Shown: positions 20,764 to 56,764, numbered from the stretch's first letter. The stretch is 64,000 nucleotides of DNA from Mycobacteriales bacterium (GCA_038253225.1 JBBSHH010000003.1:545-64544); one strand, 5' to 3'. Translations and numbers: made by a program. Notes: generated by a model from the sequence alone, not told the origin.

Positions 20764-20780
20764 CCGGCCACAATCCGGTC

Positions 20781-21811: not shown

Positions 21812-22291
21812 CCCCTCGACCCGAGCAGCCAGCCGGTCGGCCGTCCCGGCGTGACCACCGGGAACGGTCGGGTTGGCGGGGACGCTGTTCGCAACCCGTA
21901 AGCGGGAGGCACCTGGCGTCGGTCGGCCGGGCATCGCAGGGTGGCACCCATGAGTCGTGGCGTCCGCGCAGTTGCCGCTCGCGGTGCGGCGGTCGCGGTG
22001 CTCGCCGCGGTCCTCACCCGGTTGCTGGGGCGGCTGGTGCCCCGGCTGGTGCCGAGCCCGCCAGCCGAGTGGGTGGCCGAGGCTCCACCGGTGGTCGAGC
22101 CCCGGCCGGGGGCCACCACGCCGACCACGCCGCCGGCGCTCCGCCCGGCCGCCGGCGGCAACTCCGGGCGGCGGGAAGCGCGCGGCGTCCCCCCGGCCAG
22201 CGCTCCCGCCGCCCCACCCGGTCCCCGCAGCTGTCGCCGCCGGCCGGCTATCCGGTCCCAGCGGTCTCAGCGGTCTCTGGGCGGCTGCCCG

Positions 22292-30239: not shown

Positions 30240-31781
30240 TCAGATCCGGTCGGCGAACTCCGCCGTGAAGTCGGGCAGGGTGTCCAGTGAGACGCCCAGA
30301 CCGTCGGCGACCCGCCGGCCGTACTCCGCGTCGCACTGGGTGAAGTGCCAAATCATCCGCTCCTGCACGGACTTCTCGCACTGGCCGAGCAGCGTGGTGA
30401 AGTTCAGCACGAGGTCGTCCTTCTCGGCCTCGGAGAGCTCGTAGCCGACCAGTTCTCCGCGCCAGCGCTGGCCGACCTGGCCGTAGGGGTTCTTCCGGTC
30501 GATCGCCTTGCGCTGCAGCGGGCCGGAGATCTCCGGCTCGTACGCCGCGCCGCCGGGCGTAGCCTCGCGCAGCCCGGCGAGGCCGGACGGCTCGAAGTTG
30601 ATGTGCGGGTTGGCACCGACGTTGTCCCGGCCGTAGGACATCAGCCCACCGGTCTGGTTGGTGCTGACCGGGATGCCCTCCGCGGGCCGGTTGACCGGCA
30701 GCTGCTGGTAGTTCGGCCCGACCCGGTAGCGCTGGGTGTCGGAGTAGGAGAACGTCCGGCCGACCAGCATCTTGTCGTCGGAGAAGTCCAGCCCGTCGAC
30801 CAGTACGCCGGTGCCGAACGCGACCTGCTCGTTTTCGTCGTGGTGGCTGGTGACGTTGCGGTTGAGCGTCATGACGCCGACCGGGAGCAGCGGGAACTGG
30901 TCCTCGGGCCAGACCTTGGTGTCGTCGAGCGGGTCGAAGTCGAGCTCCGGGTGCTCGTCGTCGCTCATGACCTGGACGCAGAGCTCCCACTGCGGGAAGT
31001 CCCCGCTCTCGATCGCCTCGTAGATGTCCCTGGAGGCGTGGCCGAGCTCGGTCGCCTGGACGGCGTCGGCCTGGGCCTGGGTCAGCGACTCGATCCCCTG
31101 TCGAGTCTTCCAGTGGTACTTGACCAGCACCGCCTCCCCGGCGGCGTTGACCATCGTGTAGGTGTTGACCCCGAAGCCGTCCATGTGCCGGTAGTCCGCG
31201 GGTATGCCGCGCGTGCTGAACAGAAACGAGAGCATGTGCATGCTCTCCGGCGTCTGCGACATGAAGTCGAAGATGCGGTTGGGCTCCTGGCGGAAGGTCA
31301 CCGGGTCCGGCTTGAGGGAGTGGATGACGTCCGGGAACTTGATCGCGTCGCGGATGAAGAACACCGCGAGGTCGTTGCCGACCAGGTCCCAGTTGCCGTC
31401 CTCGGTGCGCAGCTTGACCGCGAAGCCACGCGGGTCACGGGACACCTCGGAGGAGTCGCGGCCACCGATGACCGTGGAGAGGCGGATCGTGACCGGGGTC
31501 TTGGTGCCCTTGTCCTGGAACAGCTTCGCCCGGGTGTAGGTCGACGCTGGCTGGTCGCCGATGGTGCCGTTGGCCTCGAACTCGCCGTGCGCGACGAACC
31601 CGCGGGCGTGCACCACCCGCTCGGGAATCCGCTCCCGGTCGAAGTGGCTGATCTTCTCGAGGAAGTGGTAGTTCTCCAGCGTCGCCGGGCCGCGGCGCCC
31701 GACGGTGCGCTGGTTCTGGTTGTCGACGATCGGGTGTCCCTGCCGGTCGGTCAGGACGTCGCGGCTCTCTTGGGTGGTCAT
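30240..31781 (-). CDS. katA: monofunctional heme catalase
   Basis: [13 protein letters not shown] (distal His), [21 protein letters not shown], and [14 protein letters not shown] (proximal Tyr region). ATG at 31781, 4-nt overlap with the fur stop. Confidence 0.95.
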
Positions 31782-32251
31782 GCTGTTCCCCTCTCGTCGG
31801 ACGTGGTCCCGGACGGCGTCTCGATCCGGGCCGTGCAGGCCTGGCAGCGGCCCCAGAACGTCACCTCTGCCTCGTCCACCACGAAGCCGGCCGCACCGGA
31901 GGGGTCGAGGCAGGGCGCCGACCCGACCGCGCAGTCGATGTCGGCGGTGGCGCCGCAGTCGCGGCACACGACGTGGTGGTGGTTGTCGCCGACCCGGGCC
32001 TCGAACAGCGCAGGGCTTCCGGCCGGCTCGATCCGGCGAACCAACCCGGCGGTCGTGAACGCCCGCAGGATGTCGTAGACGGCCTGCGTGGACAACGACC
32101 CCAACCGCTCCCGGGCGGCGCCGGCGATCGTCTCGACGTCCCGATGCTGCCCCTCGGGCAGCGCCGCGAAGACGGCCAGTCGGGGGGCGGTCACCCGCAG
32201 GCCGGCGGCCCGGACCCGACTGGCGACGTCCATGGGCTCGACCGGAGTCAT
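31778..32251 (-). CDS. fur: Fur family transcriptional regulator (FurA/CatR-like peroxide-responsive regulator)
   Basis: [26 protein letters not shown]...C-x2-C metal site. Immediately upstream of the catalase and co-directional. Confidence 0.85.
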
Positions 32252-32323
32252 TGCGCGCAGCCTGCCACGGCTAACTTGATCGAGTCAAATCAGCGAACCG
32301 GTCAACGGGCAGCCGGCCGGGCG

Positions 32324-32968
32324 TCAGCCGCGTTTGACCGCCACCAGCAGCCCGTCACCGACCGGCAGCAGCGCCGGCACCAGCCGCTCGTCGTCGCGCA
32401 TGCTCCGGCCCAGTTCCCGCACCACGGTGGTCTCCGGGTCCCGCGCGGAGGGGTCGGCGACCCGGTCGTGCCACAGCGCGTTGTCGAACGCCGCCACCCC
32501 GCCCGGGCGCAGCAGCCGCAGCGCCTCGGTGAGATAGTCGGCGTACTCCGTCTTCTCGCCGTCACAGAAGACGAGGTCGTAGCCGCCGTCGGTCAGCCGC
32601 GGCAAGACCTCGAGGGCCGGCCCGTTGATCATCCGGACCCGCCCGGGTGGGAAGCCGGCCTCGGTGTAGCTCTGGCGGGCCAGCCGCTGGTGCTCGGCCT
32701 CGATGTCGACGCTGGTCAGGACGCTGTCGGTCGGCATGCCGCGGAGCAGCCAGATGCCGGACACACCGCAGCCGGTGCCGATCTCGACCACGTGTCGGGC
32801 CCGGAGCGTGGCTGCGAGGAACCGCAGCGTCGCCCCGCCACCGGCGCCGATCGGGACCGCACCGACCTCGGTGCCGCGCTGGCGGGCCGCCGCGAGCGCG
32901 GCGTCCTCCGGCAGGTAGGCGTCGGCGTAGTCGCGGCTGGCCTGCGCCCCCGCTGGTCCCGTGCTGAT
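32324..32968 (-). CDS. class I SAM-dependent O-methyltransferase (family 3, Rv1220c-like)
   Basis: [19 protein letters not shown] motif [10 protein letters not shown], and LLRPGGV. The conserved N-terminus ([21 protein letters not shown]) extends upstream of the only canonical start, GTG at 32791. An in-frame stop lies at 33002-33004. Confidence 0.8.
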
Positions 32969-33016
32969 GGCGGCCTCCCCGGATCGACTCGGACCGCGAG
33001 CCTAGCGGGGACGGCG

Positions 33017-33042
33017 GGAACCCGGTCCCGGCGCGTTCCGTT
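33017..33042 (+). promoter_or_regulatory. ECF sigma-E type promoter (GGAAC-N17-CGTT) upstream of sigE, predicted autoregulatory
   Basis: gGGAACccggtcccggcgcgttcCGTTgg lies about 60 nt upstream of the sigE ATG and matches the ECF02/SigE consensus in sequence and spacer length. Confidence 0.6.
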
Positions 33043-33100
33043 GGCTGAGGACGGGGTTCGACCGGGTGGCCCGTGGCCCGCGGCGCAGGAAGGCGGCACC

Positions 33101-33739
33101 ATGGTGGGGACGGATGTGGTGCCCGGTTCCGACGCCCGGCCGGCGGGAGGTGTCTTCGTGGTGGAGCGTCCCGAGCCCGCCGACCTCCCCGTCGAGTGGA
33201 CTCCGCCGAGCTGGGACGAAGTGGTCCGCACCCATTCGGCCCGGGTGTACCGGCTGGCCTACCGGCTGACCGGCAACCAGCATGACGCCGAGGACCTCAC
33301 CCAGGAGGTCTTCGTCCGGGTCTTCCGGTCGTTGGGGTCCTACACGCCTGGCACGTTCGAGGGTTGGCTGCACCGCATCACCACGAACCTGTTTCTCGAC
33401 CTGGTCCGCCGGCGGGCCAGGATCCGGTTCGAGGGTCTGCCGGAGGACGCCGAGCGGATCCCCGGTCGCGAGCGCACCCCGGCACAGGTCTACGACGACA
33501 CCCACCTCGACGGCGACGTGCAGGCGGCGCTGGACGGCCTGCTCCCGGAGTTCCGGGCCGCCGTGGTGCTCTGCGACATCGAGGGCCTGTCCTACGAGGA
33601 GATCGCCGCGACGCTCGGGATCAAGCTGGGTACGGTCCGCAGCCGCATCCACCGGGGCCGGGCGGCGTTGCGCGCCGCCCTCGGGCACCGGGCCCCGGAG
33701 CCCGACGGGGACCGCACGGCCGATGGAGGTTCCGCGTGA
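33101..33739 (+). CDS. sigE: ECF RNA polymerase sigma factor SigE
   Basis: Region 2 ([17 protein letters not shown]...[15 protein letters not shown]) and region 4 ([25 protein letters not shown]). ATG at 33101 with AGGAAGG SD. Confidence 0.9.
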
Positions 33740-34302
33740 GCATCCGTCCCTCCCCCAGCTCCCGGGCGCACCTGGGGGAGACCGCGGCGCCCCTGGTCGA
33801 CGGCGAGCTCGGCCACGCCGCCCGCGACGCCGCGTTGGCGCACCTGGCCGGCTGCGCCCGGTGCCGCGCCGAGGTCGACAGCCAGCGTCGGGCCAAGGTC
33901 CGGATCTCCGGCCTGACCGGCCCGGTCCCCGGCGCCGATCTGCTCGCCCGGCTGCAGGCCATCGGCTCCGACGCCGACCGGCCGCCGCCCCGCCCGTCCC
34001 CGCCGCCGCGGCGGCCGCGGCTGATCGGTCGACGGCCGCTACCCGCCCGCCCGCCCGCCCGCCGCCCGGCCGGCGGCCGGAGCCGGCTGCGCTACACCGT
34101 CGCCGGCGCGACGTCGGTGGTGCTGCTCAGCGTCGGGATGTCGCTGCTCGGCGCCGGGGAGAACGACCCGGGCCAGCGGATCACCCCCGCGGTCGACCGG
34201 TTCGCCGAGGAGCATGCCGCCACCACCGGCGAGGTGCCGTTCACCGAGCCGGCCGTCGGGGCGGCGGTGTCCGTCTCGTTCGCCACGTCGGCGCGGCCGT
34301 GA
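33736..34302 (+). CDS. rseA: anti-sigma-E factor RseA (zinc-associated anti-sigma, HxxxCxxC)
   Basis: GTG overlaps the sigE stop (GTGA). [12 protein letters not shown] motif. Pro/Arg-rich linker, then a TM helix ([14 protein letters not shown]). Confidence 0.8.
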
Positions 34303-35414
34303 GCGCAGCCGGCCTCGCGCCGCGGCCGGCGCGGGTCCGGGCGCTCATACTCGCCGCCGGCCTGGGCACGGTGAGCAGCGTCGGGCTGCTCAGCGAGCCC
34401 GGCCTCGCCGCCGGTCCGCCGCTGGTGACCCGGGCTGCGCCCGCGGCCGGCGACCCGGGGGCGCTCGCCCTGCTCCGGCGCGCCTCCAGGGCGGCCTACG
34501 GGACGTCCTACCGCGGGGTGCAGTACGTCTCGTCGTGGGGCGACGGGGCGGCCACCAGCGTCGTCGTGGAGGTCGCGCACCGGGCCGGGGCGGGTTCGCT
34601 GGTCCGGGTCGAGTCCACGGCGGCGGGCGGCGGGGTGAGCGTCTACGAGAGCGACTCGCGGGCGGGGGCGGCCGAGGTGGACGCGCCCGGGGGCGCGCTG
34701 GCCCTGCTGGAACGCAACTTCGTCGTACGGATGGGCTGGCCGGACCAGGTCGCCGGCCACCGCGCCGACGTGGTGGAGGTCCGCCGCCCGGCCGGCTCGC
34801 TCGCGGCCCGGCTCTGGCTCGACCACCGCACCGGCCTGGTGCTGCGTCGGGAGGTGCACGACACGCACGGGCGGCTGGTCCGGGCCAGTGCGTTCGTGCA
34901 GCTCGACGTCGGCGAACCCGGCGCCGTACCGCAACCGGTGGCCGACCGCGGCCAGGCCCTGCCACCGCCGTGGGGAGCGCGGCTGACCGCGGCCCAGCTG
35001 GCTGGGATGCGCACGGCCGGCTGGGCGGTGCCGCAGTCGCTGCCGCCGGACCTCAGCCGCTACGACGCACGGGCCCGGACCGCCGGCGGCCGGCAGGTGC
35101 TGCACCTGTCCTACTCCGACGGGCTGTCCACGGTGTCGATGTTCGAGCAGCGCGGCCGGCTGGCCGATGCGGACCTGCACGACTGGCGCAAGACCCGGCT
35201 GGCCGGCGCCACCGTCTACGTCCGGGACACCCTCCCGCAGCGGCTGTCCTGGGCCAGCCGTGGGATGGTGTACACCCTGATCGCCGACGCCCCACCGGAG
35301 ACGGTCGAGGCGGTGGTGCGCAGCTTGCCGCACGGGAGAAGGTCGGTGGGGTTCGTGACCCGGGTGCACCGCGGACTGGTGCGGATCGGGTCGTGGTTCA
35401 ACCCGTTCGGCTGA
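34299..35414 (+). CDS. MucB/RseB-like sigma-E regulatory protein
   Basis: GTG overlaps the rseA stop (GTGA). N-terminal signal or TM segment. The core LLERNFVVRMGWPDQVAGHRADVVEVRRPAGSLAARLWLDHRTGLVLRREVHDTHGRLVRASAFVQLDVG parallels the E. coli RseB region LERSYQL...LWVDRDTGLLLK..V....G.L.E...F.SL. Confidence 0.7.
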   Translation: MSAAGLAPRPARVRALILAAGLGTVSSVGLLSEPGLAAGPPLVTRAAPAAGDPGALALLRRASRAAYGTSYRGVQYVSSWGDGAATSVVVEVAHRAGAGSLVRVESTAAGGGVSVYESDSRAGAAEVDAPGGALALLERNFVVRMGWPDQVAGHRADVVEVRRPAGSLAARLWLDHRTGLVLRREVHDTHGRLVRASAFVQLDVGEPGAVPQPVADRGQALPPPWGARLTAAQLAGMRTAGWAVPQSLPPDLSRYDARARTAGGRQVLHLSYSDGLSTVSMFEQRGRLADADLHDWRKTRLAGATVYVRDTLPQRLSWASRGMVYTLIADAPPETVEAVVRSLPHGRRSVGFVTRVHRGLVRIGSWFNPFG

Positions 35415-35432
35415 TCGACCCCGCCCGACCGG

Positions 35433-36902
35433 TTGTCGGGCCGCCCGACGCCTCGAGGAAACGACACCGCGATGACTGACGACGACCGCACCGAGCGCCT
35501 TCCCGGCGCGGACCCGCAGGCCGCCCCGTGGTGGTCGCGCCCCGCGGCGGAGGACCCGTGGCGCCCGCCGGCCGAGCCCCCCGCCGACGCCCCGACGTAC
35601 ACCGACACCGCACCGATCCCCCCGGTCGGCGGCGGCTCGCAGCCCGGCGCGACCCGGATCGACCCGGCTCCCGGCCCGACCGGCACGGCGACGCGTCCGG
35701 TCGAGGGCTGGGGGTATCCGGTCGACACGGTCGGGCGGCCGGTCGGCGGTACCCGGCGGTCCCTGCTGTGGCTGCTGCTGCCGGTGGCGCTGATCGCCTC
35801 GCTGGTCGGCGGCGGCATCGGGGGGTGGGTGGGTTACCGCAGCGCGGACCGTTCCCGCTCCGGTCCGCTGACCGACCAGAATGCGACGCTCGGGGCACCC
35901 ACCGGTACCACGGCCGGCTCGGCCTCTAGGCCGCCGGACTCGGTCGCCGGGATCGCCCGCAAGGTGCTGCCGAGCGTGGTCTCGATCAGCGTCCGGTCCA
36001 GCAGCAGCGCCGGCACCGGATCCGGGGTGATCCTGCGCTCGGACGACTACATCCTGACGAACAACCACGTGGTCGCCGAGGCCGGCAGCGGCGGTCGCAT
36101 CGATGTCACCTACAGCGACAACCGCACCAGCAGCGCCCGGATCGTCGGGGTCGATCCGAAGTCCGACCTGGCCGTGATCAAGGCGGCGCAGCGCGGCGGC
36201 ACGCCGGCCGAGCTCGGCAACTCCGACGACCTGGTGGTCGGTGACCCGGTGATCGCGATCGGCTCGCCGCTCGGCCTGCAGGGCACGGTGACCTCGGGCA
36301 TCGTCAGCGCCAAGAACCGGCCGGTCACCCCGAACGGCGAGGCCGGCAGCAGCAACGACGCGTTCTTCAGCGCGATCCAGACCGATGCTGCCGTCAACCC
36401 GGGCAACTCCGGCGGCCCGCTGGTCAACTCACGCGGCCAGGTCGTCGGGATCAACTCCGCGATCGCCACCCTCGGCGCCAGCAACCCCTTCGGCGGGCAG
36501 TCGGGCTCGATCGGTCTCGGCTTCGCGATCCCGATCGACCAGGCCCGCTCGGTCGCCGAGCAGCTCATTCGGACCGGCAAGGCCGCCCACCCGGTGCTCG
36601 GCGTCCGGGCGACCACGCTGAGCCCGCAGCAGGCCGAGTCGATGCCCGGGTCGCAGCCCGGCGCATTGATCTCCGGCTCCGGCACCCAGCCGGGGATCGT
36701 CTCGGGTGGGCCCGCCGACAAGGCCGGCTTGCGGGCCGGGGACATCATCGTGGCGATCGACCGCGAGCGGGTCACCGGCATCGATGAGCTGATCGTCGCG
36801 GTCCGCGCGCACCAGGTGGGAGACGTCGTCACGGTGACGTACCTGCGCGGCGGCACGTCCCACCGCGCGCGGGTCACGCTCGGCAGCGACAGTGGCGGCT
36901 GA
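35433..36902 (+). CDS. htrA: HtrA/DegP family serine protease (PepD-like) with a single PDZ domain
   Basis: Pro-rich cytoplasmic N-terminus, a TM helix, a trypsin-like domain (GTGSGVIL...TNNHVV, DLAVIK, GNSGGPLVN catalytic triad) and a PDZ domain. Confidence 0.9.
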   Translation: MSGRPTPRGNDTAMTDDDRTERLPGADPQAAPWWSRPAAEDPWRPPAEPPADAPTYTDTAPIPPVGGGSQPGATRIDPAPGPTGTATRPVEGWGYPVDTVGRPVGGTRRSLLWLLLPVALIASLVGGGIGGWVGYRSADRSRSGPLTDQNATLGAPTGTTAGSASRPPDSVAGIARKVLPSVVSISVRSSSSAGTGSGVILRSDDYILTNNHVVAEAGSGGRIDVTYSDNRTSSARIVGVDPKSDLAVIKAAQRGGTPAELGNSDDLVVGDPVIAIGSPLGLQGTVTSGIVSAKNRPVTPNGEAGSSNDAFFSAIQTDAAVNPGNSGGPLVNSRGQVVGINSAIATLGASNPFGGQSGSIGLGFAIPIDQARSVAEQLIRTGKAAHPVLGVRATTLSPQQAESMPGSQPGALISGSGTQPGIVSGGPADKAGLRAGDIIVAIDRERVTGIDELIVAVRAHQVGDVVTVTYLRGGTSHRARVTLGSDSGG

Positions 36903-36985
36903 CCGGCCGTACCCTCGGGGGTCGTGCGCCGGCGGTGCGCCCACCGCAGCGCCGCTGGTCGCGGTGATCCACCTCCGACTCCGTC

Positions 36986-37336
36986 GTGACGGGAGGCCAG
37001 GTGCTCGACCATCTCGGCGCTGGCGAGCTCGTCGTCATCGTGCTCGTCGGCCTGTTCGTGTTCGGCCCGGAGCGGCTGCCGCAGGTGGCCGCCGACTTCG
37101 GCCGGGCGCTGCGCCGCTTCCGCCAGATCGCCCAGGGGGCGACCGCCGAGCTGAAGTCCGAGCTCGGGCCGGAGATGGCCGACCTCGACCTCGCCTCGCT
37201 GAACCCGCGGACGTTCGTCCAGAAGCACCTGTTCGACGACGACGACGGGCAGTCGGCACCGACCGCCGTGGCTCGGGCCACCCAGCAGCCGCTGGCCGAG
37301 GGGGAGCGCCCGCCCTACGACCCCGACGCCACCTGA
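36986..37336 (+). CDS. tatB: Sec-independent protein translocase TatB
   Basis: LGAGELVVIVLVGLFVFGPERLP is the TatA/B N-terminal helix. An amphipathic helix and an acidic tail follow. An alternative GTG start lies at 37001. Confidence 0.85.
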   Translation: MTGGQVLDHLGAGELVVIVLVGLFVFGPERLPQVAADFGRALRRFRQIAQGATAELKSELGPEMADLDLASLNPRTFVQKHLFDDDDGQSAPTAVARATQQPLAEGERPPYDPDAT

Positions 37337-37369
37337 GGGGTCCGGTCCGAACCGTCCGGTCGGCGCGCG

Positions 37370-38509
37370 CTACCGGCCGGCCGGGGTGAGCCGCAGCGGG
37401 CGGCCGACCAGCCCGCGGGCGCGGCCGCCGAGCCGGTCCGCGACGGCCCGCAGCTCCTTCGACGCCGGCGCGTCGGGGTCATCGAGGACCAGCGGCCGGC
37501 CGGAGTCGCCGCCCTCCCGCAGCCGGATGTCGATCGGTACCGAGCCGAGCAAAGGGACCGTCGCGCCGGTGGCGGTGCTCAGCGCCGCCGCCACCGCGGC
37601 CCCGCCGCCGGAGCCGAACACCTCGACCAGCTCGCCGCAGTGCGGGCAGGGCAGTCCGGCCATGTTCTCCACAACGCCGGCGATGGCCTGGTGGGTCTGC
37701 AACGCCACGGTCCCGGCCCGCTCCGCCACCTCCCGGGCGGCGAGCTGCGGTGTCGTGACGACCAGCAGCTCCGCACTCGGGACCAGCTGCGCCACCGAGA
37801 TCGCGATGTCGCCGGTCCCGGGCGGCAGGTCCATCAGCAGCACGTCCAAGTCACCCCAGTAGACGTCGGCGAGGAACTGCTGCAGCGCCCGGTGCAGCAT
37901 CGGCCCGCGCCACACGACGGGGCTGTTCCCCTGCACGAACATGCCGATCGAGATGACTTTGACGCCGTACGCCGACGGCGGCATGATCATGCTCTCGACC
38001 TGGGTCGGCCGGCCGGTGACACCGAGCATCCGGGGCACCGAGTGGCCGTAGATGTCGGCGTCGACCACTCCGACCGACAGGCCGCCGGCGGCCATCGCCA
38101 CGGCGAGGTTCACCGTCACCGACGACTTGCCGACCCCGCCCTTGCCGCTGGCGACGGCGTAGACCCGGGTCAGCGAGGACGGCTGCGCGAAGGGGATCTC
38201 CCGGCTGGGTGAGTCGCCGCGCAGCTGGGTCTGCAGCGTCCGGCGTTGCTCCTCGGACATGACGTCGAGCTCGACCGCCACCCCGGTGACACCGGGCAGG
38301 GCGGCCACCGCCGCGGTCACGTCCTTGGTGATCCGGTCCTTGAGCGGGCAGCCGCTGACCGTGAGATAGATGGCGACCTGGACCCGGCCGTCGACGCCGA
38401 CCGCCACCGACTTCACCATGCCCAGCTCGGTGATCGGGCGGTGGATCTCCGGGTCGGACACGGTCGCGAGCGCGGCCAGCACGGCGTCGTTCGCAGGGGG
38501 AGTAGGCAT
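37370..38509 (-). CDS. mrp: Mrp/ApbC/NBP35 family iron-sulfur cluster carrier ATPase
   Basis: N-terminal DUF59 (MIP18-like) domain, ParA-type P-loop VASGKGGVGKSSVTVNLA, and a conserved CPxC (GLPCPHCGE). Confidence 0.9.
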   Translation of the reverse strand: MPTPPANDAVLAALATVSDPEIHRPITELGMVKSVAVGVDGRVQVAIYLTVSGCPLKDRITKDVTAAVAALPGVTGVAVELDVMSEEQRRTLQTQLRGDSPSREIPFAQPSSLTRVYAVASGKGGVGKSSVTVNLAVAMAAGGLSVGVVDADIYGHSVPRMLGVTGRPTQVESMIMPPSAYGVKVISIGMFVQGNSPVVWRGPMLHRALQQFLADVYWGDLDVLLMDLPPGTGDIAISVAQLVPSAELLVVTTPQLAAREVAERAGTVALQTHQAIAGVVENMAGLPCPHCGELVEVFGSGGGAAVAAALSTATGATVPLLGSVPIDIRLREGGDSGRPLVLDDPDAPASKELRAVADRLGGRARGLVGRPLRLTPAGR

Positions 38510-38608: not shown

Positions 38609-39106
38609 GTGCCGGTAACGCGGGTGAGGGATCGGGGTCGCTCGGTGCCCGCGCCCGACGAGCTGGTGATGTGGCGTGCGTTCCTGCGCGCCCACGCGGT
38701 GCTGACCCGGCGGCTCGAGGCGGATCTGATGGTCGAGTGCGGGCTGCCGCTGCCGTGGTACGACGTGCTGCTCCAGCTCGCCGAGGCCCCCCAGCGGCGG
38801 CTGCGGATGACCGAGCTCGCCGACCGGGTGCTGCTCTCCCGAAGCGGGCTGACCCGGCTGGTCGATCGGTTGCAGCAGGACCGGCTGGTCCGGCGGGAGC
38901 CCTGCCCGAGCGACGCCCGCGGCACGTTCACGGTCCTGACCGACGGCGGCCTGGCCCGGCTCCGGGCCGCCTCACCCGTCCACCTGAACGGCATCGCCAC
39001 CGCGGTGACCGGCCGGTACTCCCCGGTCGAGCTCGCCACGCTGGGCCAGCTGCTGTCCCGGCTCGGCACGGCACCGTCGGAGTGGCCCGACTCAGGCGCG
39101 AAGTAG
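38609..39106 (+). CDS. MarR family transcriptional regulator
   Basis: Winged-helix region MTELADRVLLSRSGLTRLVDRLQQDRLVRRE. Confidence 0.8.
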   Translation: MPVTRVRDRGRSVPAPDELVMWRAFLRAHAVLTRRLEADLMVECGLPLPWYDVLLQLAEAPQRRLRMTELADRVLLSRSGLTRLVDRLQQDRLVRREPCPSDARGTFTVLTDGGLARLRAASPVHLNGIATAVTGRYSPVELATLGQLLSRLGTAPSEWPDSGAK

Positions 39107-41422
39107 CGCCGCCACCCCGTGCTCGAGGGCGGCTGCCCCGACCGGCTTGGCCAGGGTCGCGTCGGCGCCGGAACCGGTGAGCTCCGCCGTTCCGGTGCCG
39201 GCCTCGTCGACGAAGGCGAGGATCGGTAGCGGGTCCCCGTCGGCGGCCCGCAGCCGGCGCAGCAGCGCGGGTGCGGGAAGGTCCGCCAGCTCGCTGTCCA
39301 CGAGGACTCCGGCGTAGTCGCCGCCGGCGGCGAGCTGGAGCGCCTCTTCCGCGGTGCCGACCGCGTCCACCTCGGCGGAGCCGGTCAGTGCGGCGCTGAC
39401 GAACGAGCGGAAGCCCGGGTCGTGGCTGGCCAGCAGCACCCGCGGTGCGAGCACCTGTTCGAGGGCGGCGGTTCGCCCGGCGGCGACCGGCGCCGGCGCG
39501 GGGGTGCGGCAGTACGGGCACACCTTCCAGCTGGCGTCGAGCGGGCGGGCGCAGCTGTCGCAGCGGCCGCGACCGACCGGGGTGGTGCACCAGGGGCAGA
39601 CGACCATGTCGTCGGTGACGCCGTTGCGGCAGCTCGGGCAGTGCGCCCCGGCGCCGTCGTCGACCTGGGTGACCCGCAGGACCTCCTCGAACGTCGTCTC
39701 GCCGCGGCGGGCCTTGGCCAGCCCGGAGCCCCGCATGGTCACCATCCCGGCCGCCCGGGCGGCCGTCGCCACCGCGGCCTCGGTCGGGTTCTCCAGCAGC
39801 ACCGCACGCATCGTCGCGGTCACCACGAGCACCTCGAACACGCCCAGTCGGCCCTTGTAGCCGGTGCCGCCGCAGTCCGAGCAGCCGCGACCGCGCCGCG
39901 GTGTGTCCTCGGCGAGGTCGGCGGCGGTGAGCCCCAGCAGCTGCAGCACCCGGGCGGAGGGGATGTAGGGCTCGGCGCAGGCCGCACACGGCCGCCGGAC
40001 CAGCCGCTGACCGACCACGAGGGAGAGCGACGAGGCGACGAGGAAGGGCTCGACACCCATGTCGACGAGCCGGGTCAGCGCCGCCGGTGCGTTGTTCGTG
40101 TGCAGGGTCGTCAGCACGAGGTGGCCGGTGAGCGAGGCCTCCAGCGCCAGCTTCGCCGTCTCGGTGTCCCGGACCTCGCCGACCAGCACCACGTCGGGGT
40201 CCTGCCGCAGGATCGAACGCAGCCCGCGGGCGAAGCTCAGGCCGGCCTTGTCGTTGGTCTGCACCTGGGTGATCCCCGGCACCTGGATCTCGACGGGGTC
40301 CTCGAGCGTGACGATGTTCCGCTCCGGCGTGCGGATGTGGTTGATCGCCGAGTACAGCGTGTTCGTCTTGCCGGAGCCGGTCGGGCCGGTGATGAGCACG
40401 AGGCCCTGCGGCGAGGCCAGCGAGGTCAGCAGCCCCTCCAGCTGCTCACCCTCGATGCCCATCCGCTGGATCGCCGGCACCGAGTCGGCTCGGGTGAGCA
40501 GCCGGACGACAATCTTCTCGCCGTGGACGGCGGGCAGCGTGCTGACCCGGCAGTCGATCTTCTGGCCGTCCACGAGCAGCTGGGTGCGGCCGTCCTGCGG
40601 TACCCGCCGCTCGGCGATGTCCAGGCCGGCCACCACCTTCACCCGGCTCACCAGCCCGGCGGCGGCCGACTTCGGCACGGTCATCACGTCGCGCAGGACG
40701 CCGTCGACGCGGTAGCGGATCCGGACCTCCTTGGCCTCGGGCTGCACGTGCACGTCGCTGGCGTTGGCGCGGACCGCGTCGGCGAGCACCACGTTGACCA
40801 GCCGGACCAGCGGCGCGTCGTCGATGGAGCCGGCGCCGGCCGGGTCCAGCTCGGAGGTGTCGGGCTCGAGCTCCTCGAAGAAGCCGACCATGTCGGGGTT
40901 GCTCTCCGACAGCGACCACGCCCGGCCCAGGTAGTCGCGCAGCTGGCTCTCCGTCGCGACGACCACGCTGAGGTCGGCCACCCCGGTGTAGAGCTTGACG
41001 TCGTCAAGAGCCACGACGTTCGTCGGGTCGACGCAGGCCACCCGCAGGCCGCTGCCGGTCCGGTCCAGGACCAGCACGCCGCTGCGATGCGCGACCGCCT
41101 GCGGCAGCAGCCGCACCAGCTCCTGATTGATCGAGGTGCGGCCGAGATCGACCAACGGCAGGTTCAGGGCGCTCGCGAGCGCGCTCGCGAGCGCCCGCTC
41201 GTCGGTGAAACCGCTCTCGATCAGCACCTGCCCCAACCGCCGCCGCCGGGTGCCGGCGGGGGTCTCCGCCTGTGTCCGCAGCGCCTCGTGCAGCTGGCTC
41301 TCGGTGATCGCCCCCTGCTCCAGAAGCACCTCACCGAGCCGGCGACGACGGCGCTCCGCGGCCGGCGCCGGCGCCGGCGGGGTCGGCAGGCGGTCGGTGG
41401 TGCCGAAATGGGGCGGAGTCAC
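39092..41422 (-). CDS. orphan PilB/GspE-type secretion ATPase with N-terminal MshEN-like domain, extra C-terminal zinc ribbons and a CheY-like receiver-like domain
   Basis: The N-terminus carries two RLGxxLLxxGxIxxxxLxxALxxQ-like repeats (RRLGEVLLEQGAITESQLHEALRTQ and RRLGQVLIESGFTDERALASALASAL). The ATPase core has Walker A GPTGSGKT, Asp-box/Walker B DPDVVLVGEVRD, His box LVLTTLHTNNA, and the tetracysteine CAAC...CSDC. Next come CPSC...CPWC and CDSC...CPYC zinc ribbons. The tail (VLLASHD, VLVDSELADLP, LAKP) has a REC fold. Confidence 0.85.
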   Translation of the reverse strand: MTPPHFGTTDRLPTPPAPAPAAERRRRRLGEVLLEQGAITESQLHEALRTQAETPAGTRRRRLGQVLIESGFTDERALASALASALNLPLVDLGRTSINQELVRLLPQAVAHRSGVLVLDRTGSGLRVACVDPTNVVALDDVKLYTGVADLSVVVATESQLRDYLGRAWSLSESNPDMVGFFEELEPDTSELDPAGAGSIDDAPLVRLVNVVLADAVRANASDVHVQPEAKEVRIRYRVDGVLRDVMTVPKSAAAGLVSRVKVVAGLDIAERRVPQDGRTQLLVDGQKIDCRVSTLPAVHGEKIVVRLLTRADSVPAIQRMGIEGEQLEGLLTSLASPQGLVLITGPTGSGKTNTLYSAINHIRTPERNIVTLEDPVEIQVPGITQVQTNDKAGLSFARGLRSILRQDPDVVLVGEVRDTETAKLALEASLTGHLVLTTLHTNNAPAALTRLVDMGVEPFLVASSLSLVVGQRLVRRPCAACAEPYIPSARVLQLLGLTAADLAEDTPRRGRGCSDCGGTGYKGRLGVFEVLVVTATMRAVLLENPTEAAVATAARAAGMVTMRGSGLAKARRGETTFEEVLRVTQVDDGAGAHCPSCRNGVTDDMVVCPWCTTPVGRGRCDSCARPLDASWKVCPYCRTPAPAPVAAGRTAALEQVLAPRVLLASHDPGFRSFVSAALTGSAEVDAVGTAEEALQLAAGGDYAGVLVDSELADLPAPALLRRLRAADGDPLPILAFVDEAGTGTAELTGSGADATLAKPVGAAALEHGVAALLRA

Positions 41423-41494
41423 CTCATGTCTCTCGGCCGCCGGGCGGCCGGAGTGAAGAGCCGGCGCCGACCCTTTCGCGATCGGCCGTCCGGG

Positions 41495-42040
41495 CTACCC
41501 GCCCCCGGCGACCGGGTGATCCTGCGGTAGCCGCAGCCCGTCGCCGTCCCGCGCCTCGAGCAGGTCCTCGGCCAGTCGTTGCAGCTCCGAGCGGAGGAAG
41601 TCGCGGGTGGCGACCTCCCCGAGCGCGATCCGCAGCCCGGCGACCTCGCGGGTGAGGTACTCGGTGTCGGCGATCGCCCGCGAGTTGACCGACCGGTCCT
41701 GGTCGAGGTTGACCCGGTCCCTGTCGTCCTGCCGGTTCTGCGCCAGCAGGATCAGCGGCGCGGCGTACGCCGCCTGCAGGGACAGCACCAGGGTGAGGAA
41801 CTGGAACGGGTAGCGGTCGAAGCCGCGGTAGACCGCGGCGGGCAGCACGTTGACCACGATCCAGATCGCGATCATGACGCTCTGGATGACCAGGAAGCGA
41901 GCGGTGCCGATGAAGCGGGCGATGGTCTCGGCCAGCCGCCCGAACGCGTCCGGGGAGTAGTGCGGCCGGGGCACGACCTGCCGGCGGATCTCCCGCGGCT
42001 GGTCGAGCCGCGGCTCCCGCCGACGGTCAGCCCGAGTCAC
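41495..42040 (-). CDS. DUF1003 domain membrane protein
   Basis: YSPDAFGRLAETIARFIGTARFLVIQSVMIAIWIVVNV, then a second TM helix and a coiled-coil tail. Typically paired with the MgtE-N/CBS protein upstream. Confidence 0.75.
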   Translation of the reverse strand: MTRADRRREPRLDQPREIRRQVVPRPHYSPDAFGRLAETIARFIGTARFLVIQSVMIAIWIVVNVLPAAVYRGFDRYPFQFLTLVLSLQAAYAAPLILLAQNRQDDRDRVNLDQDRSVNSRAIADTEYLTREVAGLRIALGEVATRDFLRSELQRLAEDLLEARDGDGLRLPQDHPVAGGG

Positions 42041-43325
42041 GCACCCGGCCGTCCTCTTCGGCGGTGCTGTCGCGCCAGTTGTCCGGCAGCAGGTGGTCCA
42101 GGACGTCGTCGACGGTGACCGCACCGAGGAGGTGGTCGTTGTCGTCCACGATCGGTACCGCGACAAGGTTGTACGTCGCCAGGTAGCTGGTCAGCTGCTG
42201 CAGCGCGGTGTCGGGGCGCAACGGGCCGATATCGGTGTCCATCACCCCGCTGACCAGCGCGGAGGGCGGCTCGCGCAGCAGCCGCTGCATGTGCGCGATG
42301 CCGAGGTACCTCCCGGTCGGAGTCTCGGTGGGTGACCGGCAGACGTAGACCTGGCTGGCCAGCGCCGGGCTCACCTCCGGGTTGCGGACCCTGGCCAGGG
42401 CCTCCGCCACCGTGGCGTCCGGCGCCAGGATGATCGGTTCGGAGGTCATCATGCCGCCGGCGGTGTCGTCGGAGTAGCTCAGCAACCGGCGGACCGGCGC
42501 CGCCTCGTCCGGCTCCATCAGCGCCAGCAGCCGCTCCGCCTCGTCGGTGGGCAGCTCGGCCAGTAGGTCGGCCGCGTCGTCCGGGGCCATCGCCTCGAGC
42601 ACGTCCGCGGCCCGGACGTCCTCGAGCTTGCCGAGGATCTCGACCTGGTCGTCCTCCGGCAGCTCCTCGAGCACGTCGGCGAGCCGCTCGTCGTCGAGGG
42701 CGGCGGCGACCTCGGCCCGGCGCTTCGGGGACAGCTCGTGGAGCACGTTCGCCAGGTCCGCCGGGCGCAGCTGGTCGAAGGCCGCCAGCAGGTTCGCCGC
42801 CCCCTGGCCCTGCTCCTCGAGCGAGAAGCCGGTCACCGCGTCCCAGTCGACGATCGTGACGTGCGCGCGGCGGCGCATCCCGCCGGCCGGGCGGACCGCG
42901 ACCTTGGTCACGATCCAGTCCCGGGCCCTGGTCTGCTCCATGCCGGCGTCGACGACGATCAACGCCGCCTTGTCCTCCAGCCGGGTGACGCGGCGGTCCA
43001 ACAGCTCGCCGAGGACCAGCGTCTCGCCGGTCCGCTGCTCGAACCGGCGCAGGCTCACCGTGCCGGTGATGATCACCGCGTCGGCCTCGAACGTGGTGAC
43101 CCGGCCGATCGGGACGAACACCCGTCGGCGGGGCTGCATCTCGACGACCAGCCCGAGCACCCGCGGTGGCTGCCGGCCGATGCGCAGCGCGACGACGACG
43201 TCGCGCACCCGGCCCACCTGGTCGCCGTTCGGGTCGAACACGGCCAGGTCGGCGAGGCGCGCGACGAACACCCTCGTCGGCGGCCCGCTCACGGGGGCTG
43301 AGGTTACCGCCGTTCTGGCCGGCAC
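42027..43325 (-). CDS. soluble MgtE N-terminal domain / tandem CBS domain protein (no transporter TM domain), with PRC-barrel-like N-terminus
   Basis: MgtE_N acidic helices (LAELPTDEAERLLALMEPDEAAPVRRLL) and a CBS pair (MTSEPIILAPDATVAEALARV...LVAVPIVDDNDHLLGAVTVDDVL). No hydrophobic C-terminal domain. Confidence 0.8.
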   Translation of the reverse strand: MPARTAVTSAPVSGPPTRVFVARLADLAVFDPNGDQVGRVRDVVVALRIGRQPPRVLGLVVEMQPRRRVFVPIGRVTTFEADAVIITGTVSLRRFEQRTGETLVLGELLDRRVTRLEDKAALIVVDAGMEQTRARDWIVTKVAVRPAGGMRRRAHVTIVDWDAVTGFSLEEQGQGAANLLAAFDQLRPADLANVLHELSPKRRAEVAAALDDERLADVLEELPEDDQVEILGKLEDVRAADVLEAMAPDDAADLLAELPTDEAERLLALMEPDEAAPVRRLLSYSDDTAGGMMTSEPIILAPDATVAEALARVRNPEVSPALASQVYVCRSPTETPTGRYLGIAHMQRLLREPPSALVSGVMDTDIGPLRPDTALQQLTSYLATYNLVAVPIVDDNDHLLGAVTVDDVLDHLLPDNWRDSTAEEDGRVRDSG

Positions 43326-43345: not shown

Positions 43346-44263
43346 ATGGCCGGGTTGCCCTACGACGTCGTCGACGTCTTCACCGACACGCCCTACGCCG
43401 GCAACCCGCTGGCGGTGGTGCTCGACAGTGACGACCTGCCCATGGCTGCGCTGCAGGCGCTGGCGCGGGAGTTCCAGCTGTCCGAGACGGCGTTCCCGCA
43501 GCGGCCGGACCGGGCCGACGCCGACTACCGGTTGCGGATCTTCACACCGCAGGTCGAGCTGCCGTTCGCGGGTCACCCCTCGGTCGGGACCGCGTGGGTG
43601 CTGGCCCGGCGAGGCCGGGTCTCGCCGGGAGTGCTGCGGCAGTCCTGCGGGGCCGGCCTGCTGTCCCTGACGGTGGCACCGGGGCCGGGCCGGGTGCAGC
43701 TCACCGGGGGGACACCACGGGCGGGTGCGCCGGTGCCGGCGGAGCCGCTGCTCGCCGCGGTCGGCCTGAGCCCGGCCGACCTGGCCGGCCCGGCACCGCG
43801 GGCCTGCGGCGCCGGTCTGGACTTCGGCTACCTCTGCGTGCGCGACGACGCGGTCGCCCGGGCCGAGCCGGATCACCGGGCGCTGCGCCGGCTGGCCGGC
43901 TCCGGCGCCGCCCCGGCCGGGCTGTCGGTGTTCGGCTGGGCGGCCGGGGTCGCGCACGCCCGGGTCTTCGCCGCCGAGGTCGGGGTGAGCGAGGATCCGG
44001 CCACCGGCTCGGCCGCGCTCGGTCTCGGCGTCTGGCTGGTCGCCGCCGGGCTGCTGCCCGGCGAGGGCGAGTCGGCGTACGTCGTGCGTCAGGGCGGCGA
44101 GATCGGCCGGCCCGCCACGCTGGACTGCGGGGTCGAGGCGGCCGGCGGCCGGGCTCGCCGCGTGCGGGTGGCCGGGTCCGTGGTGCCGATAGCCAGTGGC
44201 GAGATCGTCCGACCACCCACCGAGCCGGTGGCGTCCAGCCGGACGACGAGGCGAGCGGGCTAG
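43346..44263 (+). CDS. PhzF family phenazine-biosynthesis-like isomerase
   Basis: DVFTDTPYAGNPLAVV and FQLSETAF motifs, about 300-aa DAP-epimerase-like fold. Confidence 0.85.
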   Translation: MAGLPYDVVDVFTDTPYAGNPLAVVLDSDDLPMAALQALAREFQLSETAFPQRPDRADADYRLRIFTPQVELPFAGHPSVGTAWVLARRGRVSPGVLRQSCGAGLLSLTVAPGPGRVQLTGGTPRAGAPVPAEPLLAAVGLSPADLAGPAPRACGAGLDFGYLCVRDDAVARAEPDHRALRRLAGSGAAPAGLSVFGWAAGVAHARVFAAEVGVSEDPATGSAALGLGVWLVAAGLLPGEGESAYVVRQGGEIGRPATLDCGVEAAGGRARRVRVAGSVVPIASGEIVRPPTEPVASSRTTRRAG

Positions 44264-48251: not shown

Positions 48252-48657
48252 GCGTCTCGACCAGCCCGTCGGTCAGCGCCAGCCCGTCGAGGTCGGCCCG
48301 GGTGAACCAGCGGGCAGCTGCGGCGTCATCCCCGGCGGCCAGCGTCCCCCCGATCGGTCTGACGGCGTAGTCCGCGATGGCGTAGAGCACCCCAGCGCCG
48401 GCCGGCCAGTCCGCCCGCCCCACCAGCGGCCCGATGTCGACCACCAGCCCTGTCTCCTCCAGCACCTCCCGGGCCAGCGCCGCCGCCTCGCTCTCGCCCG
48501 GCTCGACCCGACCGCCCGGGAGCGACCAGCGACCCGCCGCCGGTGGCCGGCCCCGGCGGACCAGCAGCAGCCGGCCCTGCTGATCGATCGCGACGCCACC
48601 GACGCACGGCACCCGCACGGGCGCCGCCGCGGCGCCGGGTGGGGGGTTGGTGTCCAC
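48220..48657 (-). CDS. NUDIX hydrolase
   Basis: Nudix box GGRVEPGESEAAALAREVLEETGL. Overlaps the 3-prime end of the DUF2332 gene by 32 nt. Confidence 0.8.
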   Translation of the reverse strand: MDTNPPPGAAAAPVRVPCVGGVAIDQQGRLLLVRRGRPPAAGRWSLPGGRVEPGESEAAALAREVLEETGLVVDIGPLVGRADWPAGAGVLYAIADYAVRPIGGTLAAGDDAAAARWFTRADLDGLALTDGLVETLTAWGVLAAG

Positions 48658-48752
48658 GCCGGGAGACTAGGCGGGGACACCGGCCCCGAGGTCGGCGGCC
48701 GGGCGTCCGTCCCGCCGAGCCGAGCCGAACCGGAGCGAGGCATGCTGGAGCG

Positions 48753-49751
48753 ATGACCCGGCGACGTGCTGTGCTGGCTGGCGCGAGCGCTGCCGCGCTG
48801 GTCGGCGCCGCGCTCGTCACGGGCGGGGTGGTGCTGGCGACGCAGGACCGGTCCGTCCACGTGCGCAGCCCAGCCGCCCCGGTCGTCCGCACACCGGGGC
48901 CGGCCCCCGCCGGGCGCACCGCCTCGGGGTCGGCGCCGGCCGCGCCGCGGCGGACCTCGGTCGTCGTCCTGGTGGAGGAGAACCACGAGTACGCGCGCAT
49001 CATCGGCTCCCCGTCGGCGCCGTTCCTCACCGCGCTGGCCACGCACGGGACGCGGCTCTCGGCGTACTACGGCATCCGGCACCCGTCGCTGCCCAACTAT
49101 CTGGCCATGATCGGCGGGGACACGTTCGGCGTGCACAGCGACTGCACCCGCTGCCGGGTCCGCGCCACCGACCTGGTCCACCAGCTGGAGGCGGCGCACA
49201 TCTCCTGGGCGGGGTACTTCCAGGGGCTGCCGGCGCCGTGCTCGGATGTCGCCTCGGCCGGGGCCTACGCCAAGAAGCACAACCCGTTCATGTACTTCGA
49301 CGACATCCGCACGGACCCGGCCCGCTGCCGACACGTCGTCCCGATCGACGACTTCGGTCGCGACGCCGCCGCCGGCCGGCTGCCACGGTTCGCGTTCGTG
49401 GTGCCGGACCTCGACCACGACATGCACGACGGCTCGGTGGCGACCGGGGACCGCTGGGCGCAGGCGCTGTACGGGCAGCTGTCCGCGGCGCCGACGTGGG
49501 GCGCCGGCAGCCGGCTGGTCGTCACCTTCGACGAGGGAAGCTCCGACGCCGGCTGCTGCCGGCCGCCCGCGGCCGGCGGCCACGTCGTCACGATCGTGGC
49601 CGGCCCGGGGGCGCCGGCCGGTGTCGTCGACGCCACCCCCTACGACCATTACTCGCTGCTCGCCTCGATCGAGTCGGCGTTCGGCCTGTCCAGGCTCGGC
49701 TACGCCGCCGCGGCGGGTGTTACGACGATCCCCGCCCTGGCATCGTCGTGA
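48753..49751 (+). CDS. secreted phosphoesterase family protein (acid phosphatase / phospholipase C-like, PF04185)
   Basis: Signal peptide MTRRRAVLAGASAAALVGAALV after GGAG and ATG at 48753. SLPNYLAMIGGDT, HDMHDG and FDEGSSD motifs. Confidence 0.8.
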   Translation: MTRRRAVLAGASAAALVGAALVTGGVVLATQDRSVHVRSPAAPVVRTPGPAPAGRTASGSAPAAPRRTSVVVLVEENHEYARIIGSPSAPFLTALATHGTRLSAYYGIRHPSLPNYLAMIGGDTFGVHSDCTRCRVRATDLVHQLEAAHISWAGYFQGLPAPCSDVASAGAYAKKHNPFMYFDDIRTDPARCRHVVPIDDFGRDAAAGRLPRFAFVVPDLDHDMHDGSVATGDRWAQALYGQLSAAPTWGAGSRLVVTFDEGSSDAGCCRPPAAGGHVVTIVAGPGAPAGVVDATPYDHYSLLASIESAFGLSRLGYAAAAGVTTIPALASS

Positions 49752-49831
49752 CCCAGCGTGGCTCGACCGAACCTGGTCGTGACAGTTCCACCCAGTTCGG
49801 GGGTTGACGGGCGGCCGGAGCGGCCGCACCG

Positions 49832-54011: not shown

Positions 54012-54046
54012 CTGTACTCGTCATAGTCTCACTATGAGGAGGGACG

Positions 54047-56688: not shown

Positions 56689-56764
56689 ACCCGAGGGGTA
56701 GCAGGCGGGTCCGACACAATCGCTCCCGCCCCGTCCAGCCGCCGATCGTCCGAGGGAGCTCGCC

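Follow-up and report, generated by a model that had tools for sequence, protein, structure and literature searches.

What does a filament-type motor ATPase do when no pilus or secretion genes lie beside it? The question is raised by a 64,000-nucleotide stretch of DNA from a Mycobacteriales bacterium (GCA_038253225.1 JBBSHH010000003.1:545-64544), which is called the window here and whose first letter is position 1 of all coordinates. The minus strand of the window carries, at 39092-41422, an open reading frame (ORF) with a GTG start for a protein of 776 amino acids (aa), as given by the ORF list and the translation. A previous reading by a model that had only the DNA in hand, referred to as the sequence-only reading, had described this product as an ATPase of the type II secretion/type IV pilus class, and the ORF and its Pfam and NCBIfam domains agree with this description. 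Judged by homology, the gene belongs to a subfamily of hexameric PilB/MshE-type ATPases (type IV filament extension class) that is conserved but uncharacterised. The protein is built from an MshEN domain, an N1E-like subdomain, a flexible linker, an N2E/C-terminal-domain (CTD) ATPase with a Cys4 zinc site, a double zinc ribbon and a receiver (REC), in this order, and the full-length AlphaFold2 model has a mean predicted local distance difference test (pLDDT) score of 85. The gene and its parts are as follows.

39092..41422, minus strand: PilB/MshE-type ATPase gene with C-terminal double zinc ribbon and receiver; stop codon at 39092-39094 (Pfam, NCBIfam)
41168..41341, minus strand: MshEN_N four-helix bundle, residues 28-85 (NF053729, family conservation, AlphaFold2, 5HTL match)
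40904..41167, minus strand: C-terminal subdomain of MshEN, N1E-like, residues 86-173 (Pfam MshEN, AlphaFold2)
39674..40822, minus strand: ATPase core (N2E and CTD), residues 201-583 (Pfam T2SSE, invariant motifs, PilB/PilF matches)
39509..39640, minus strand: double zinc ribbon, residues 595-638 (Pfam DZR, cysteine conservation, β-hairpins in AlphaFold2)
39095..39442, minus strand: receiver fold with a degenerate active site, residues 661-776 (AlphaFold2, Foldseek, comparison with 116 homologues)

The reading frame has GC contents of 0.76/0.52/0.94 at the three codon positions, as found in real genes of this window with its 75% GC. An identical 776-aa product is called on public contigs, one of which, probably part of a metagenome-assembled genome, has exact copies of the Mrp and PhzF neighbours as well.

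The catalytic core is that of a complete extension ATPase, as the sequence-only reading had maintained. Pfam T2SSE (PF00437) covers residues 201-583 with 432 bits (cut-off 24.9), and the core contains the Walker A motif G346PTGSGKT353 (window 40364-40387) and, read from the translation, the Asp box TLEDPVE (residues 372-378), the Walker B motif DPDVVLVGEVRD (residues 408-419) and the His box TGHLVLTTLHTN (residues 432-443). In a family alignment of 87 sequences, which was used for the ATPase motifs, the Walker A core G346-T353, the acidic residues E374, D375, E378 and E416, both H434 and H441, and the four cysteines of the core zinc site (C479, C482, C514 and C517) are invariant. Foldseek aligns the predicted two-lobed core with structures of PilF and PilB at template modelling (TM) scores of 0.86-0.89 and 47-48% identity; sequence comparison points to PilB of Geobacter and Myxococcus and PilF of Thermus as the nearest proteins with a solved structure. 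Among the NCBIfam models, the PilB equivalog TIGR02538 is the best full-length match with 585 bits, under its cut-off of 675.65, and the GspE equivalog TIGR02533 follows with 552 bits, under its cut-off of 630.25.

The N-terminus is predicted to sense cyclic di-GMP (c-di-GMP). The NCBIfam model for the c-di-GMP motif domain, NF053729, matches residues 28-83 with 51.7 bits (cut-off 38), and Pfam MshEN matches residues 86-168 with 64.5 bits (cut-off 23.1). AlphaFold2 places four helices in the N-terminal bundle (29-35, 41-52, 63-69 and 75-85), mostly with pLDDT above 90, while the linker that follows the N1E-like α/β subdomain (residues 174-198) is disordered, with pLDDT below 50. The published MshEN motif consists of two 24-residue copies of RLGxx(L/V/I)(L/V/I)xxG(L/V/I)(L/V/I)xxxxLxxxLxxQ with a 5-residue joint (PMC5013675). 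Motif I of the window protein, R28-Q51, fits it with Ala38 at one hydrophobic position, a substitution tolerated by the relaxed form of the motif (PMC5013675), and is nearly invariant across the 117 family sequences that were aligned for the MshEN, DZR and receiver domains. Motif II, R62-A85, keeps the Arg, Leu, both Gly and both Leu residues; it has T73 at hydrophobic position 12, where the family has Ala, and its terminal Gln is replaced by Ala, as in 104 of the 117 family members. The relaxed set for this last position, [QNKRYWST], excludes Ala (PMC5013675). The spacer between the motifs measures 10 residues in the window protein and throughout the family. In MshEN domains the Gln side chains form hydrogen bonds with the ribose and phosphate of c-di-GMP, and the GSPII-B domain of PilF tolerates single deviations from the motif, while more degenerate domains do not bind (PMC11731258). 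Binding of c-di-GMP by this domain is thus a good prediction, not a certainty. The tandem repeats proposed in the sequence-only reading do align to MshEN (NF053729, 5HTL), but the second one ends in Ala, carries T73 and lies 10 rather than 5 residues behind the first. The fusion itself had been considered unusual, and this view has to be given up, since MshEN is a regular part of ATPases of the PilB/MshE type (PMC5013675).

What sets the protein apart lies behind the core. Pfam DZR (PF12773) matches residues 595-638 with 32.1 bits, above its cut-off of 27.3, and the eight cysteines form the two additional Cys4 ribbons that had been recognised before (C595-x2-C598…C609-x2-C612 and C621-x2-C624…C635-x2-C638). 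Seven of the eight are invariant in the 117 sequences, while position 612 varies, with 53 of them having Cys and 64 Asp. An AlphaFold2 model of residues 585-776 (mean pLDDT 88.5) starts with the hairpins of the zinc ribbon, which a short linker of low confidence connects to a receiver fold, i.e. a (βα)5 domain running from β1-α1 to β5-α5 with pLDDT above 92. The receiver is the same in the full-length model, in which the zinc ribbon scores lower (pLDDT 57-77). Nearly all of the top 50 Protein Data Bank (PDB) matches found by Foldseek for the C-terminal domain are receiver domains, the best being 7c1j (PA1611 REC; E = 2e-8), with MtrA, VanR, FixJ and CheY also present; TM scores against isolated receiver domains, normalised to the target, are about 0.80-0.91 at a root mean square deviation of 1.4-2.3 Å. 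A C-terminus with some other fold, which had been named beforehand as a possible objection, is thus not what AlphaFold2 and Foldseek return. Pfam Response_reg (PF00072) covers residues 662-768 with 24.2 bits, below its cut-off of 30.2.

The low score is accompanied by a degenerate active site. The window protein has S666, H667, D668, D709, A736 and K759 at the receiver positions, which means that only the Asp at the acceptor position (D709) and the Lys (K759) of the phosphorylation site are kept; a 5-residue insertion lies beside A736, and several further consensus positions are Ala. The family consensus, in contrast, is canonical ([D/E]666-D667-D668, D709, T736, K759) and intact in 103 of 117 sequences (~88%), and reads VV[D/E]DD where the window protein has VLLASHD. 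In the closest relatives, P0001 and P0002 (73-74% identity), the acceptor Asp and the β5-Lys region are missing and the receivers are also truncated, and other members of the clade carry no precomputed Pfam REC match. This comparison indicates that the receiver is decaying in the subclade of the window protein, and that only the active site of the receiver is eroding. Phosphorylation input is doubtful in the window copy, because it lacks the Thr and all but one of the three acidic residues, and its receiver is most likely a phosphorylation-independent pseudo-receiver that serves as a docking or autoinhibitory domain. Control by phosphorylation is plausible for the family and unlikely for the window copy. 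The sequence-only reading was therefore right about the receiver layout, with its (βα)5 fold and the retained K759-P760, but VLLASHD is not an intact acidic pocket (S666-H667-D668), and the conserved Thr has become Ala. Its idea of a signal-integrating motor stands, as a prediction, in the c-di-GMP part; the phosphorylation part is plausible for the family with its canonical receivers, but probably does not extend to the window copy.

The second distinguishing trait is the lack of a platform. Among about 65 ORFs across the 64-kb window, Pfam detects no T2SSF/PilC, PilM/N/O, Peptidase_A24 or pilin (N_methyl) domain, a six-frame search of the window yields no prepilin-type motif, and tblastn against the window with PilC, PilD, PilM and PilN from the Exiguobacterium positive-control operons gives no match. 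The absence of PilC/GspF, PilM/N/O, prepilin and peptidase genes, first reported for the vicinity of the gene, thus holds across 64 kb. The nearest plain PilBs, which share 43-48% identity with the window protein (Exiguobacterium L032 and L024), are the positive control and lie in pilB-pilT-pilC-pilin-pilD-pilM/N operons. Within the fetched flanks, PilC is found nearby at none of 26 loci of the DZR/REC class (the window and 25 related loci, 17 of them of at least 12 kb), compared with 55 of 65 plain PilB loci (Fisher p = 6e-15). None of the 65 plain PilB loci encodes a C-terminal extension of more than 32 aa, so that no DZR-only PilB occurs in a pilus operon there. Together with the missed PilB and GspE equivalog cut-offs, this supports the view that the architecture is not the classical one. 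On a short contig of a Mycobacteriales metagenome-assembled genome (MAG), the family ATPase is closely followed downstream by a fragment of a second T2SSE-type ATPase (L019:2687-3061), 39% identical to PilT queries; no other locus has two such genes adjoining.

The fusion is not singular but belongs to a large family in public data. The best 120 database matches share 57-74% identity with the window protein, are mostly 750-800 aa long and all contain MshEN and T2SSE; nearly all of them carry Response_reg and many DZR, and more than 100 homologues in this identity range have the same architecture. Those of the best 120 that bear an organism name are all Frankiales, Frankiaceae, Mycobacteriales or generic Actinomycetota MAGs. 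In a scan of a genome collection, all family matches come from MAGs, none with more than 64% identity. In a library clustered at 50% identity, a C-terminal REC is present in 37 and DZR in 55 of the closest 150 representatives, and Pfam assigns the order MshEN-T2SSE-(DZR)-REC to ten cluster representatives, with some REC scores of 100-117 bits. Conservation of the C-terminal module extends down to 38-45% identity; Response_reg scores of distant members range from 55 to 117 bits, and some of these proteins are extended to about 1,500 aa. A neighbour-joining tree of ATPase cores, crude and to be taken as a hint only, places the DZR/REC forms apart from plain PilBs, with a patchy distribution of REC. 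No NCBIfam equivalog covers the family, as scored with the window protein, P0027 and P0211, and no paper on it was found in the literature on DUF1003, MshEN, orphan PilB and actinobacterial type IV pili. The names under which its members appear in public records ('type IV pilus assembly protein PilB', 'TadA', 'T2SS/T4P/T4SS family') are guesses without verification.

Several variants occur within the family. Four loci (L013, L015, L016 and L021) encode the ATPase and zinc ribbon without a receiver in the same synteny, and the Sporichthyaceae locus L020 encodes a bare core, with mrp 54 nt after it; these five loci form a natural truncation series within one synteny. Particularly long forms with the MshEN-T2SSE-DZR-REC order (1,180-1,530 aa) are P0194 (L096:10001-14587), P0235, P0204 and P0233. 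In P0194, P0204 and P0235, Pfam finds no domain in the 400-750 residues after the receiver, and P0194 is annotated as originating from a deltaproteobacterial MAG.

The surroundings of the gene are made up as follows.

43346-44263, plus strand: PhzF-like gene, divergent (gene-order table)
42027..43292, minus strand: soluble PRC/SH3-MgtE_N-CBS protein of 421 aa, first gene of the likely operon (Pfam; P0276)
41495..42040, minus strand: DUF1003 membrane protein of ~181 aa, GTG start at 42040, two hydrophobic helices (Pfam 119.7 bits, hydropathy)
41423-41494: intergenic gap of 72 nt between the DUF1003 and ATPase genes (intergenic sequence)
38609..39106, plus strand: MarR-family regulator, convergent (Pfam MarR_2 58 bits, MarR 39 bits)
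37370-38509, minus strand: Mrp/ApbC (Pfam)
36986-37336, plus strand: TatB (Pfam)
35433-36902, plus strand: HtrA-like protease (Pfam)
about 34356-35414, plus strand: RseB-like protein (Pfam; tblastn with RseB of L002)
about 33742-34302, plus strand: zf-HC2 anti-sigma factor (Pfam; tblastn with the anti-sigma factor of L002)
about 33197-33694, plus strand: SigE-like extracytoplasmic function sigma factor (Pfam; tblastn with SigE of L002)
within the conserved block 30240-38509 (Mrp to catalase), strand not given: O-methyltransferase and catalase (gene-order table)

The genes for the MgtE_N/CBS and DUF1003 proteins are located upstream of the ATPase gene and are co-directional with it, because the latter is on the minus strand; the sequence-only reading had placed both downstream. 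The ATPase gene is thus the third in a co-directional array, MgtE_N/CBS to DUF1003 to ATPase, and likely in the same operon. The array lies within the mrp-tatB-htrA-rseB-anti-σ-sigE block, so that MarR, MgtE_N/CBS and DUF1003 are not the only neighbours, as had been supposed. The MgtE_N/CBS stop codon overlaps the DUF1003 start by 14 nt, and the 3' end of the MarR gene overlaps that of the ATPase gene by 15 nt. A sigma-70/terminator scan of the operon region, of a type ill-suited to actinobacterial promoters, detects nothing promoter-like, and its sole terminator-like match is antisense, within the ATPase gene. The 421-aa MgtE_N/CBS product is 100% identical to P0276 and contains MgtE_N (93.8 bits) and CBS (50 bits); PRC and FliG_M match it weakly. 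It lacks a transmembrane part; the NCBIfam mgtE model covers the cytosolic half only (119 bits, cut-off 232.75). Its top 120 matches show 72-83% identity, well above the values for the ATPase. Its homologues bear the Joint Genome Institute (JGI) names 'Mg/Co/Ni transporter MgtE', 'MotE chaperone' and 'YlmC PRC-barrel protein'.

The relatives repeat this gene order, with DUF1003 directly upstream of the ATPase and the same mrp-tatB-htrA-rseB-anti-σ-sigE flank. MarR occupies the same place in many, not all, of them and is sometimes replaced by AzlCD. At locus L017, MarR and Mrp are kept downstream, while signalling genes replace MgtE_N/DUF1003 upstream. Those at L017:5038-9610, ahead of the ATPase gene at L017:10001-12142, encode a REC-PAS-HisKA-HATPase hybrid kinase, a REC-HATPase_c_2 protein and a PAS-GAF-SpoIIE phosphatase, and the hybrid kinase is a candidate partner for the receiver domain of the ATPase. 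Distant REC-bearing members, orphans as well, are found in more varied places: L089 is located beside Mrp-TatB-HtrA-RseB-SigE, without MgtE_N/DUF1003, L087 in an mfd-eno-divIC-ppx region, L095 among three REC proteins and a hybrid kinase, and L090 and L096 in unrelated metabolic neighbourhoods.

How such a protein might work can be outlined by analogy with its relatives. The protein would form an ATP-driven hexamer, and binding of c-di-GMP to its N-terminal four-helix bundle would gate activity or assembly, as it does in MshE and PilB. The receiver of most family members would provide a second input, by phosphorylation from an unlinked kinase, while that of the window copy would act as a pseudo-receiver, independently of phosphorylation. 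The mechanical output would be directed to a membrane platform encoded away from the gene. Because the core is collinear with bona fide PilBs, is 47% identical to them and retains the N1E-like subdomain, the single most likely partner would be a PilC-type platform of a type IV filament system elsewhere in the genome, an assignment that is tentative and somewhat less than an even bet. The pilF gene of Thermus is presumably likewise unlinked from pilC. Several points weigh against this proposal. We infer all of its functional steps from homology. The c-di-GMP input is predicted rather than assured, because motif II lacks its terminal Gln and the spacer is twice the usual length. P0027 (561.5 bits) and P0211 (588.2 bits) likewise score under the cut-off of the NCBIfam PilB equivalog, and all three proteins, including that of the window, are below the cut-offs of both the PilB and the GspE equivalogs. 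No PilC, PilM, PilD or pilin gene is present at any of the 26 loci, for which reason the presumed platform partner may not exist in these genomes. Finally, the conserved array with MgtE_N/CBS and DUF1003, all in one direction, is a hint at another partner.

This hint can be developed into a reading that is possible, though we consider it distinctly less probable: the ATPase would have left type IV filaments and would work on, or be controlled by, the DUF1003 protein with its two transmembrane helices and the PRC/SH3-MgtE_N-CBS protein, a module resembling Mg2+ or nucleotide sensors, and the three would form a novel unit of motor and platform with a link to the SigE/HtrA/Tat envelope locus. This reading accommodates the array, co-directional in the window as well as in almost every relative of 55-78% identity with enough upstream flank, the short DUF1003-ATPase gaps (-1 to 112 nt), the lack of terminator-like sites between the array genes, the absence of a PilC-type platform from every locus examined, and the weak match of MgtE_N to FliG_M, a motor-associated fold. 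However, L017, L087, L089, L090, L095 and L096 have no MgtE_N/CBS and DUF1003 genes beside the ATPase gene, the MgtE_N/CBS protein is far more conserved than the ATPase (72-83% versus 57-74% among the top matches), and it is translationally coupled to DUF1003 and not to the ATPase. The adjacency of the ATPase could thus reflect an insertion into an old synteny block; in M. tuberculosis, Rv1232c-Rv1231c presumably represent the MgtE_N/CBS-DUF1003 pair beside mrp without such an ATPase. The most specific version, in which a PilB-derived hexamer detached from filaments drives or gates the DUF1003 and MgtE_N/CBS module in a deep uncultured lineage of Actinomycetota, under the control of c-di-GMP and, in most members, of phosphorylation, and with the unit placed inside the SigE/HtrA/Tat/Mrp locus for envelope stress, is rather unlikely. 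It would nevertheless give the secretion-ATPase superfamily a motor-platform pair of a new kind and provide a first functional lead on DUF1003.

A platform may also be dispensable altogether, if the protein is a sensor of c-di-GMP or of nucleotide state that acts via protein contacts of its DZR/REC tail and performs no mechanical work. The consistently orphan class, its repeated occurrence among signalling genes (L017, L095) and the regulatory-type domains at its C-terminus are compatible with this proposal, but conservation of the catalytic and hexamer-forming core is as strong as in functioning motors, the protein retains the N1E-like subdomain, through which homologues contact GspL or PilM, and no output partner has been identified. 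There is precedent for signalling by PilB and for allosteric coupling of c-di-GMP and ADP (PMC5544727, PMC6957770). The proposed role would resemble the one in signalling that M. xanthus PilB is reported to have in exopolysaccharide regulation. On balance, we regard a purely signalling ATPase as improbable. Far less probable still is an ordinary pilus or secretion ATPase with cosmetic extra domains and a cognate pilC/pilM/pilin/peptidase cluster just outside the window, although public annotations say PilB and the best NCBIfam match is PilB. The window comprises 64,000 of the 65,062 bases of its contig and contains no such genes, and neither do the 25 related loci, in contrast to 55 of 65 plain PilB loci; moreover, the C-terminal module has been kept across deep divergence, at 38-45% identity. 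The sequence-only reading had named such a nearby cluster as the finding that would make the architecture routine, and given that the window and the related loci lack platform genes, this is very unlikely. Nor is the gene, in all likelihood, a decaying relic. The receiver of the subclade without its key residues, truncated too in P0001 and P0002, would suit a gene that is losing its function, but the ORF is intact with a coding-type third-position GC of 0.94, the ATPase, zinc-site and MshEN motif-I residues are all preserved, and relatives align at 73-74% identity without frameshifts. Separately, a role in anti-phage defence was considered and rejected, PADLOC giving a marginal P-loop match only.

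The proposal of a c-di-GMP-gated hexamer with an unlinked PilC-type platform bears on a class of enzymes that is understood almost wholly in terms of pilus, secretion and competence motors, usually encoded beside a PilC/GspF platform. Here, a conserved motor, a c-di-GMP sensor and a zinc-ribbon/receiver tail are combined in a family that is unlinked from a platform across many contexts. If the genomes in question encode pili, the family would show how pilus assembly in little-studied Actinomycetota of soil brings together c-di-GMP and two-component signals; otherwise, a motor of the secretion superfamily would have acquired a new job. The bare core, the core with the ribbon, the form with a canonical receiver and the form with a decayed receiver provide a natural series in which regulation of the hexamer by its tail can be followed.

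Other parts of the window contain further features of note. Two adjoining and slightly overlapping LOG/'lysine decarboxylase' (SLOG) paralogues are encoded at 18206-19066 and 19039-19653 (both plus strand). They are followed at 19700-22290 by ~2.6 kb with 77% GC and long overlapping ORFs on both strands, e.g. 20438-21934 (minus), 19714-20763 (plus) and 21364-22266 (minus), for which neither a Pfam match nor a clean coding GC pattern was found. Long ORFs without a Pfam match are also present at 48273-49880 (minus), 54038-55243 (plus) and 55804-57051 (minus); the first may not be a gene, because it fails the coding-type GC filter, and the last overlaps an aminotransferase gene (56702-57976). An FtsH-like protein (AAA and Peptidase_M41) is encoded at 9166-11259 (plus), with its AAA domain matched in two separate stretches, and a DUF6113 gene (11165-11716, plus) comes after it. 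Close together lie genes for a PIG-L deacetylase (8083-9165, plus), a class-I Cys-tRNA-synthetase-type ligase (12313-14340, minus) and an Rv0428c-like GNAT acetyltransferase (13725-14759, minus), the latter two overlapping as called. The deacetylase and the ligase may, we assume, be mycothiol-pathway genes (MshB-like, and MshC- or CysS-like).

Among the known systems, the window protein is closest to PilB. It is collinear over residues 24-589 with Geobacter PilB (metallireducens/sulfurreducens 5TSG, 6OLJ and 5ZFR; 490 bits for 6OLJ) and shares with PilB of Geobacter and M. xanthus and with PilF of Thermus thermophilus the Walker A, Asp, Walker B and His boxes and the Cys4 site; PilB and PilF also carry an N-terminal MshEN/GSPII domain. 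Unlike plain PilB, it has ~190 extra C-terminal residues, comprising the double zinc ribbon and the receiver, and unlike the nearest plain PilBs, its family never adjoins a pilT, pilC, pilD, pilM or pilin gene. The MshEN domain of Vibrio cholerae MshE (5HTL) matches residues 24-167 with 78 bits (E = 4e-21), but MshE is part of the MSHA pilus operon, while the window protein is an orphan. GspE/EpsE (1P9R, 4KSR and 4PHT) belongs to the same superfamily, has the same zinc site and matches residues 174-593 with 374-384 bits. In contrast to GspE systems, no gspF, gspL, pseudopilin or secretin genes are located near the gene, the host is a monoderm-type actinobacterium, and the window protein has the c-di-GMP motif, which the Xanthomonas GspE homologue is reported to have lost (PMC5013675). 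With CheY-like receivers (PA1611 REC 7C1J, MtrA 3NHZ and CheY 1CHN), the C-terminal domain shares its predicted fold, D709 and K759-P760. It differs from them by the replacement of the acidic pair by Ser and His and of the conserved Thr by Ala beside the 5-aa insertion, and by its location at the C-terminus of an ATPase, instead of the typical position N-terminal to an output domain.

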